Assembly: GCA_964016885.1 (NCBI GenBank)
Contig: OZ024740.1
Span: 131,812,001-131,876,000 of the forward strand
DNA: 64,000 bases
Reading direction: 5' to 3'
Origin: Eledone cirrhosa
Taxonomy: Eukaryota
Of this stretch, positions 54,428-54,979 are shown in pieces. The position numbers were made by a program, and so were the translations under genes. Each line of letters opens with the position of its first letter. The stretch's first letter is position 1. The notes below the pieces were generated by a model that did no database searches, had not been told where the DNA came from, and saw nothing but the letters and a program-made list of their open reading frames with translations.

Positions 54428-54478
54428 GAATAAAATAAAATAAATAAGTCAAATGTTTAAAATTTAGCTTCGTTTATT

Positions 54479-54533
54479 ACTGCAATATATATTTCGGTGA
54501 CAGCCATCTTAGGCTGTGAACTCTTCAGGCAGT
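54479..54533 (-). ncRNA. Type I hammerhead ribozyme
   Basis: actgc-CTGAAGA-gttcacagcc(taaga)tggctgtcacc-GAAA-tatata-TT-gcagt; AUU triplet. Confidence 0.8.
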
Positions 54534-54771
54534 CCAAATTAGTGTGGTATAGACAAGTACATATGTTGTTGAGGGGTATAACTTTGTCAATACTCTGATA
54601 TGCCCAGTTCCTGGTTGGGTTGTTATTTCACTGAGGAACTGGAATCCTATTATTCCAATGATTCCAGTTCCTCAGTGAAATATAGCACAGCCAGGAACTG
54701 GGCATATCAGAGTATTGAAAAAGTTATACACCTCAACAACATATGTACTTGTCTATACCACACTAATTAGG

Positions 54772-54826
54772 ACTGCCTGAAGGGGTCACAGCCAAAGATG
54801 GCTGTCACCGAAATATATATAGCAGT
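54772..54826 (+). ncRNA. Type I hammerhead ribozyme (A9 to G variant)
   Basis: actgc-CTGAAGG-ggtcacagcc(aaaga)tggctgtcacc-GAAA-tatata-TA-gcagt. Confidence 0.72.
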
Positions 54827-54979
54827 AATAAACGAAGCTAAATTTTAAATATTTTATTTATTTATTTTATTTTATTTTATTTTACATTACTCCGAAGTAA
54901 CCAGTCCAACCGGCGCACTTCATCGCGTGTTCCAATCTGCATACTAAGGTGTTGGTATACAACCAACATATACTCAAAA

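Follow-up and report, generated by a model that had tools for sequence, protein, structure and literature searches.

The window, a 64,000-nt stretch of Eledone cirrhosa contig OZ024740.1, contains a palindromic insertion that is, judged by its sequence, an ordinary end stub of a Penelope-like element (PLE), made of two head-to-head pseudo-LTRs (pLTRs) of which one carries a tail and the other is tail-less. Its features are listed in Table 1, where the element is numbered from the arm start, henceforth referred to as r0, placing the hammerhead core at r122 and the tail at r225-r320. The inverted repeat arms, 54425-54617 and 54688-54880, are 193 nt each and 94% complementary, and as RNA the 54429-54880 segment is predicted to fold into a single rod with a 13-nt loop, this segment being the ~450-bp palindrome described by an earlier sequence-only reading of this DNA. 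The predicted fold of 54429-54985 has an energy of -355.8 kcal/mol (z = -35), which was equalled by 0 of 100 shuffles. The earlier reading placed the end of the unit at 54880 and missed the tail on one side, in which an AC-rich stem-loop is found just ahead of the tail end. Target-site duplications are unreadable since both flanks are microsatellites.

Table 1. Features of the palindromic insertion and of the neighbouring hammerhead-bearing insertion, in window coordinates.
Position	Strand	Feature	Basis
54290..54424	.	(CA)n/(TA)n microsatellite, left flank; likely insertion target	sequence; family ends
54425..54650	-	tail-less inverted arm, pLTR r0 (at 54650) to first 3' end r227	93% to natural reference copy
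54479-54533	-	minimal type I hammerhead motif; intact core, weakened stem II base	read, folded
54651..54657	.	7-nt junction insert that looks like a template-derived copy of the arm start	
54658..54884	+	tailed arm, pLTR r2 to r225	91% to natural reference copy
54772-54826	+	minimal type I hammerhead motif, core A9 to G at 54783	core-pattern scan, fold
54885..54980	+	one-sided tail r225-r320, ~95 bp	copy comparison
54981..55130	.	(CT)n then (TA)n, right flank	sequence; family ends
55681-56278		second hammerhead-bearing head-to-head insertion, unrelated family; arms 55765-55949 and 56094-56278	

The two hammerhead motifs, one per arm, both have the stem I ACUGC/GCAGU and a UAUAUA loop III, and both are predicted to co-fold as dimers via the palindromic loop III, in agreement with their previous description as minimal type I hammerheads with a palindromic loop III. 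The places, stem I and loop III given for one hammerhead in each polarity were thus confirmed, and each motif was found to be altered at one important site relative to the family. In the plus-strand motif, with a predicted cut at 54821/54822, the conserved A9 is changed, as the motif reads CUGAAGG versus CUGAAGA in the family. The minus-strand motif has the triplet AUU, not AUA, and was missed by the strict scan because U replaces G in the basal pair of stem II. The covariance-model check proposed in the sequence-only reading gave no Rfam hammerhead at gathering level in the 64,000-nt window and none at E<=10 in 54400-56400, where only sub-threshold matches, mostly to miRNA hairpins, were obtained. 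Since there is no Rfam match, the hammerhead call rests on core pattern and folding.

The host genome (3.0 Gb) was searched for further copies. The palindrome query returned 1485 candidates, and all 40 that were scored matched nearly full length. The 17 distinct palindromic copies that were aligned are all flanked by simple repeats at either end, and each has a tail at just one end. A 25-mer from the arm start gave 1682 exact matches compared to 0 for the control, and head-to-head r0/r0 junctions were found by exact match at least 238 times genome-wide. Some of the copies selected by their tail continue upstream of r0. The family samples described below are top-scoring or exact-match subsets and not the whole family.

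The parent is a ~4.3-kb Penelope-like element with a single ORF encoding a PLE-type reverse transcriptase (RT) and a GIY-YIG endonuclease. It carries the same pLTR and tail, which bears out the proposed PLE pseudo-LTR origin. The tail in full-length copies continues into the 5' UTR and ORF start. In three loci (L091, L092 and L093) a piece of pLTR upstream of the ORF continues across the tail and a short UTR to where the ORF begins, identifying the tail as the start of the next unit, and a downstream pLTR is present as well, so that pLTRs lie on both sides of the ORF in a partial tandem. The Pfam match to GIY-YIG is weak (E = 0.015, below the cut-off); no RT family was found by Pfam in the parent ORF, and a PDB search likewise named no RT. 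Homologues of the ORF number 1226 at E<=1e-20, mostly unnamed, with two from Argonauta hians. An intact ORF was seen in 0 of 8 long loci.

RWK and DKT motifs were each identified in 4 of the 5 loci reaching the ORF start, the CxCx5C linker in 5/8 loci, CxxC-E in 5/8 and N..CxH in 7/8. CCHH is absent, one cysteine lying inside the GIY-YIG core as read by eye. The diagnostics given for the Hydra clade in section 11 of PMC8557442 are RWK, DKT, the CxCx5C linker, CxxC before E and CxH after N. The parent motifs match this list, and the clade is assigned by motifs; the hammerhead and (TA)n target are also as in that clade. Unlike the Hydra elements, described in that section as "generally <3 kb", the parent is ~4.3 kb with a long 3' UTR. 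In loci L091-L098 this UTR is ~1.6 kb and contains direct repeats, and RT and endonuclease are separated by a stretch rich in Gly, Pro and Thr. Fragments of other PLE RTs, 48% identical, adjoin L091 and L096.

An inverted pLTR with a one-sided tail is already published, as are hammerhead pairs on opposite strands. The insertion unit of endonuclease-containing (EN+) PLEs is described as a pLTR, an adjacent inverted 5'-truncated copy and a tail on one side (PMC8557442, PMC3846280, PMC2377424). The window family shares with it the head-to-head inverted pLTR, the tail at one end only that is the start of the next unit, the hammerhead in the pLTR and the AT-rich target. It differs in the great abundance of copies that consist of pLTRs only, lack an ORF and have a fixed fold point, and in its tail of ~95 nt compared to 30–40 in the published EN+ PLEs covered by these sources. 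In Schistosoma, PLE remnants contain dual minimal hammerheads on opposite strands, 100–700 bp apart (PMC4209133), in the same arrangement and likewise with minimal type I motifs, a long helix II and a short helix I; the passage of that paper dealing with these pairs notes them in one sentence as truncated PLEs, without junction analysis. PMC8557442 and PMC3846280 both describe the origin of the inverted repeats and tails of PLEs as an open question.

The 3' ends of 251 distinct arms fall at two positions, with 121 at r314-320, 101 at r217-229 and 29 elsewhere or cut by the locus edge. Among 75 inverted pairs in which both arms reach r200, 71 combine a tailed and a tail-less arm and 3 are unclear; the remaining pair has two tailed arms and lies within a composite copy, and no pair has two tail-less arms. 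Among the 75 are a duplicated locus, an insertion that appears twice and two loci that were counted twice. Both classes of end border simple repeats: (TA)n is abutted by 94 of 100 tail-less ends and 96 of 121 tailed ends, or 190 of all 221 ends, a further 21 of which abut (CT)n. The (CT)n was observed after tailed ends only (21/121 versus 0/100 tail-less ends) and may reflect slippage on the next template bases. A counterpart is PAc, the Poseidon element of Anolis, which starts reverse transcription at two internal sites bounding its tail and cuts and extends both strands, hammerhead cleavage being dispensable in vitro (PMC11167929). An AC-rich stem-loop and an AT-rich target are further points of likeness. 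PAc belongs to a different clade, and the sections of PMC11167929 describing the two sites do not derive the inverted layout from them.

The 5' ends are concentrated at r0. A position-ordered sample, comprising the first 100 pattern matches on one contig (C1) and taking in only arms with intact r0-r24, contained 43–44 arms starting at r0; for the 56–57 continuing past it, the stops per further 100 nt were 8, 4, 8, 6 and 3. The tail-anchored sample has 29 copies, of which 18 end in the interval from r218 to r15, 7 end at r0 (within 3 nt) and 4 continue, so that 7 of the 11 copies reaching r3 stop there, two of these being duplicates. Arms starting at r0 are joined to a full partner or a truncated partner, or directly adjoin plain flank. 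The base preceding r0 at 58 non-overlap junctions was G in 18, C in 17, T in 15 and A in 8, the template base being C. The proportion of G (18/58) was significantly higher than the local G content of 13.6% (p = 5e-4) and not significantly different from a flat 25% (p = 0.18). By-eye inspection of 49 listed centres showed a perfect 4-nt join in 24 and other overlaps or upstream-running sequence in 4, and 13 of the remaining 21 have a G preceding the start in one or both arms. The r0 context, TTCA+1TA, fits an initiator consensus. A non-templated G before r0 fits a capped RNA start, as an untemplated G in LINE-1 and SVA is interpreted as the trace of cap copying (PMC4859970), and transcription of the D. 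virilis Penelope starts inside the pLTR from an internal promoter (PMC2377424). We infer that r0 is a transcription start. A point against this is that r0 is part of a short palindrome and that its first bases, ATAT, are able to pair with (TA)n.

The second insertion in Table 1, which contains a plus-strand motif at 56168-56226, a mutated minus-strand partner and a ~90-nt tail on the left, represents a family with 994 candidates and no similarity to the first. Among its 30 top copies, 22 start within 8 nt of one site and 8 continue upstream. Unlike ends were observed in 15 of 18 pairs. A G precedes the intact start in 5 of 9 cases, the template base again being C; in those five the G also matches the partner arm and may therefore have served as a joining base. 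The second family thus appears to follow the same rules as the first.

Other structures were also noted in the window. A third minimal type I hammerhead, with a CUGAUGA core, a UGCGCA loop III and a long stem II, is present in near-identical copies at 55282-55346 (+) and 37097-37161 (-). A third palindrome, 56407-56830, lies between (TA)n runs, and similar sequence is found beside copies at two family loci (L060 and L079); no hammerhead was found in it by the core-pattern scan. Further inverted repeats are located at 58511-60685, 60798-60936, 27552-28191, 24052-24382 and 47782-48562, the longest with ~900-bp arms at 85%. The G+C-richer segment 56840-57480 resembles, by eye, a minus-strand LINE reverse transcriptase fragment.

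The palindrome was probably formed in one insertion, with both cut ends of the (TA)n target serving as primers for reverse transcription and the resulting pair of cDNAs being linked at what is likely the capped RNA start. By analogy with PAc biochemistry, the element protein would cut both strands of AT-rich DNA and reverse transcription would start inside the RNA at two fixed sites, r320 and r227. If transcription starts within the pLTR, at r0, a cDNA initiated in the upstream pLTR would run off after 227 or 320 nt because the RNA begins at r0. The cDNA would sometimes copy the cap as an extra G, and the two identical cDNA ends would anneal via the self-complementary ATAT or be joined with small inserts, the template being either one RNA or two RNAs from the same source. 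We lean towards the wider view that the inverted-pLTR-plus-tail layout is the footprint of double target-primed reverse transcription by a dimeric enzyme at both ends of one cut, with the sense leader copied twice to its cap. The "two-ended PLE truncation" offered as one option in the sequence-only reading is supported by these data.

An alternative route, which we consider unlikely, is fold-back, in which a cDNA or antisense RNA self-primes at the r0 palindrome and copies to r227, with asymmetry arising by later one-sided deletion. Self-priming of antisense RNA was proposed for Adineta Penelopes (PMC3846280, Discussion), and both the short palindrome at r0 and the frequent 4-nt join favor such a route. 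The arms also share private variants: across 47 pairs with an overlap of 100 nt or more, 155 variants were common to both arms compared to a mean of 37.5 and a maximum of 63 in 2000 permutations (249 were unshared), and 24 rare variants were common to both arms compared to a permuted mean of 0.58 and maximum of 4. This sharing equally supports double priming in a single insertion, and conversion between the arms might also account for it. In four short pairs the two arms stop no more than 3 nt apart and away from r0 (r149/148, 185/185, 115/112 and 177/177), as expected of fold-back. Such symmetric stops count against double priming, as does the window copy, where 0 arm variants are shared and 15 are unshared and the extra G is absent; the stops might also arise under double priming, because identical cDNAs can anneal only at self-complementary spots. 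The variant counts indicate that the window copy is an older one, and it is probably inert.

Arm reach was compared in 43 pairs from two less biased samples, tail-anchored and position-ordered. The tail-less arm reached further 5' in 19 pairs and the tailed arm in 10, and the two were equal in 14; differences in favor of the tail-less arm ranged up to kilobases. Four of these pairs were resolved only to r-80, and two scored as "tailed longer" look like internal deletions. Simple fold-back cannot give the 19 of 43 pairs with a longer tail-less arm, some longer by more than 1 kb, because it yields only a nested tail-less arm. Because the direction of asymmetry (19 versus 10) does not depart from 50:50 (p = 0.14), asymmetric pairs could also be the outcome of palindromes losing part of one arm at a later time. 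The extra G on both arms at several junctions and the single arms starting at r0 without a partner also speak against fold-back, and neither of the longer palindromes, at r83-90 and r159-166, is a hotspot comparable to r0 (0 and 2 of the 29 tail-anchored copies).

A mobile non-autonomous unit, the other option of the sequence-only reading, is quite improbable, whether it be the whole palindrome or a 320-nt half of it that is mobilized by PLEs and spreads from short source copies. Such spread would be in keeping with the abundance of r0/r0 junctions, with the 25 of 30 arms of the window haplotype starting at r0 in a pooled sample, and with the finding that pLTRs suffice for trans-mobilization in Adineta (PMC3846280). 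The pooled sample is biased by its palindromic query. In the position-ordered sample the window haplotype gave 2 short and 2 long copies, and r0-starting as well as longer arms were found in each of the four main haplotypes. The 4-nt self-complementary join occurs in all subfamilies, while arm asymmetries are not inherited from copy to copy. PAc requires RNA beyond the tail end (PMC11167929), and this is absent from the short copies. Comparison of central junctions, suggested earlier as a check, showed that the position is common to the copies and that the sequence differs, about half of the listed centres being the 4-nt join; the window centre itself was found once among the 49 places listed. 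Because centres vary, arms share private variants and short as well as long copies come from each of the four subfamilies, no independent unit is indicated, and the palindrome appears to be remade at each insertion instead of being inherited.

One pair of copies on contig C12 (L219 and L220, 681 kb apart) has an identical 7-nt centre, including a one-arm variant, as a spreading unit would produce. The two copies differ in their flanks and arm variants. A lineage founded on this shared centre was rejected, since the centre matches only 2 places genome-wide.

A viroid-like or retrozyme-like RNA made from the window locus, with a working ribozyme in each polarity, is highly improbable. One motif is present on each strand, and the hammerhead core is intact in 164 of 200 family arms. 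Core sites nevertheless decay like the rest of the arm (2.4% versus 2.1% divergence), and selection on the ribozyme core after insertion was rejected. Each transcript would contain one sense motif, buried in a 220-bp rod, and the plus-strand motif lacks A9. None of the 251 arms ends at the ribozyme cut site, so ribozyme cleavage was also rejected as the source of the element ends, and tandem monomers are absent. Animal non-LTR retrozymes are likewise related to pLTRs, non-coding and equipped with a minimal type I hammerhead (10.64898/2026.07.22.740005; PMC7229834); as described there they are direct tandem arrays cut into monomers, in contrast to the inverted pair in the window with ends off the ribozyme site. 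The hammerheads would be passengers here, with a read-through transcript folding into a rod that buries both motifs, which supports the earlier suggestion that the long hairpin would compete with hammerhead folding. A MITE was rejected on the basis of the asymmetric tail and the RT-encoding parent.

Double priming has a counterpart in LINE-1 twin priming, where the other target end primes a second cDNA to give a 5' inversion, and in LINE-1, too, an untemplated G marks full-length copies (PMC4859970, PMC11702581). Twin-priming cDNAs of LINE-1 overlap by 1–10 bp (PMC11702581); in the window family the overlap is the whole arm, and both cDNAs would begin at fixed sites. A literature search covering mostly open-access main texts found no paper that proposes double priming up to a capped start for PLEs. 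The Hydra alignments and consensus files in the supplements of PMC8557442 may include the window family.

The family counts serve to separate insertion models through the unlike ends in 71 of 75 pairs, the non-nested arms and the 5' hotspot with its extra G, and they name three exact sites in the element, namely r0, r227 and r320. If true, double priming to a capped start would replace the published idea of antisense self-priming with one tied to the two start sites seen in vitro, and hundreds of leader-length genomic products would map the transcription start to the base. Palindromes of this kind, easily filed as MITEs or viroid-like RNAs, are by-products of retrotransposition.
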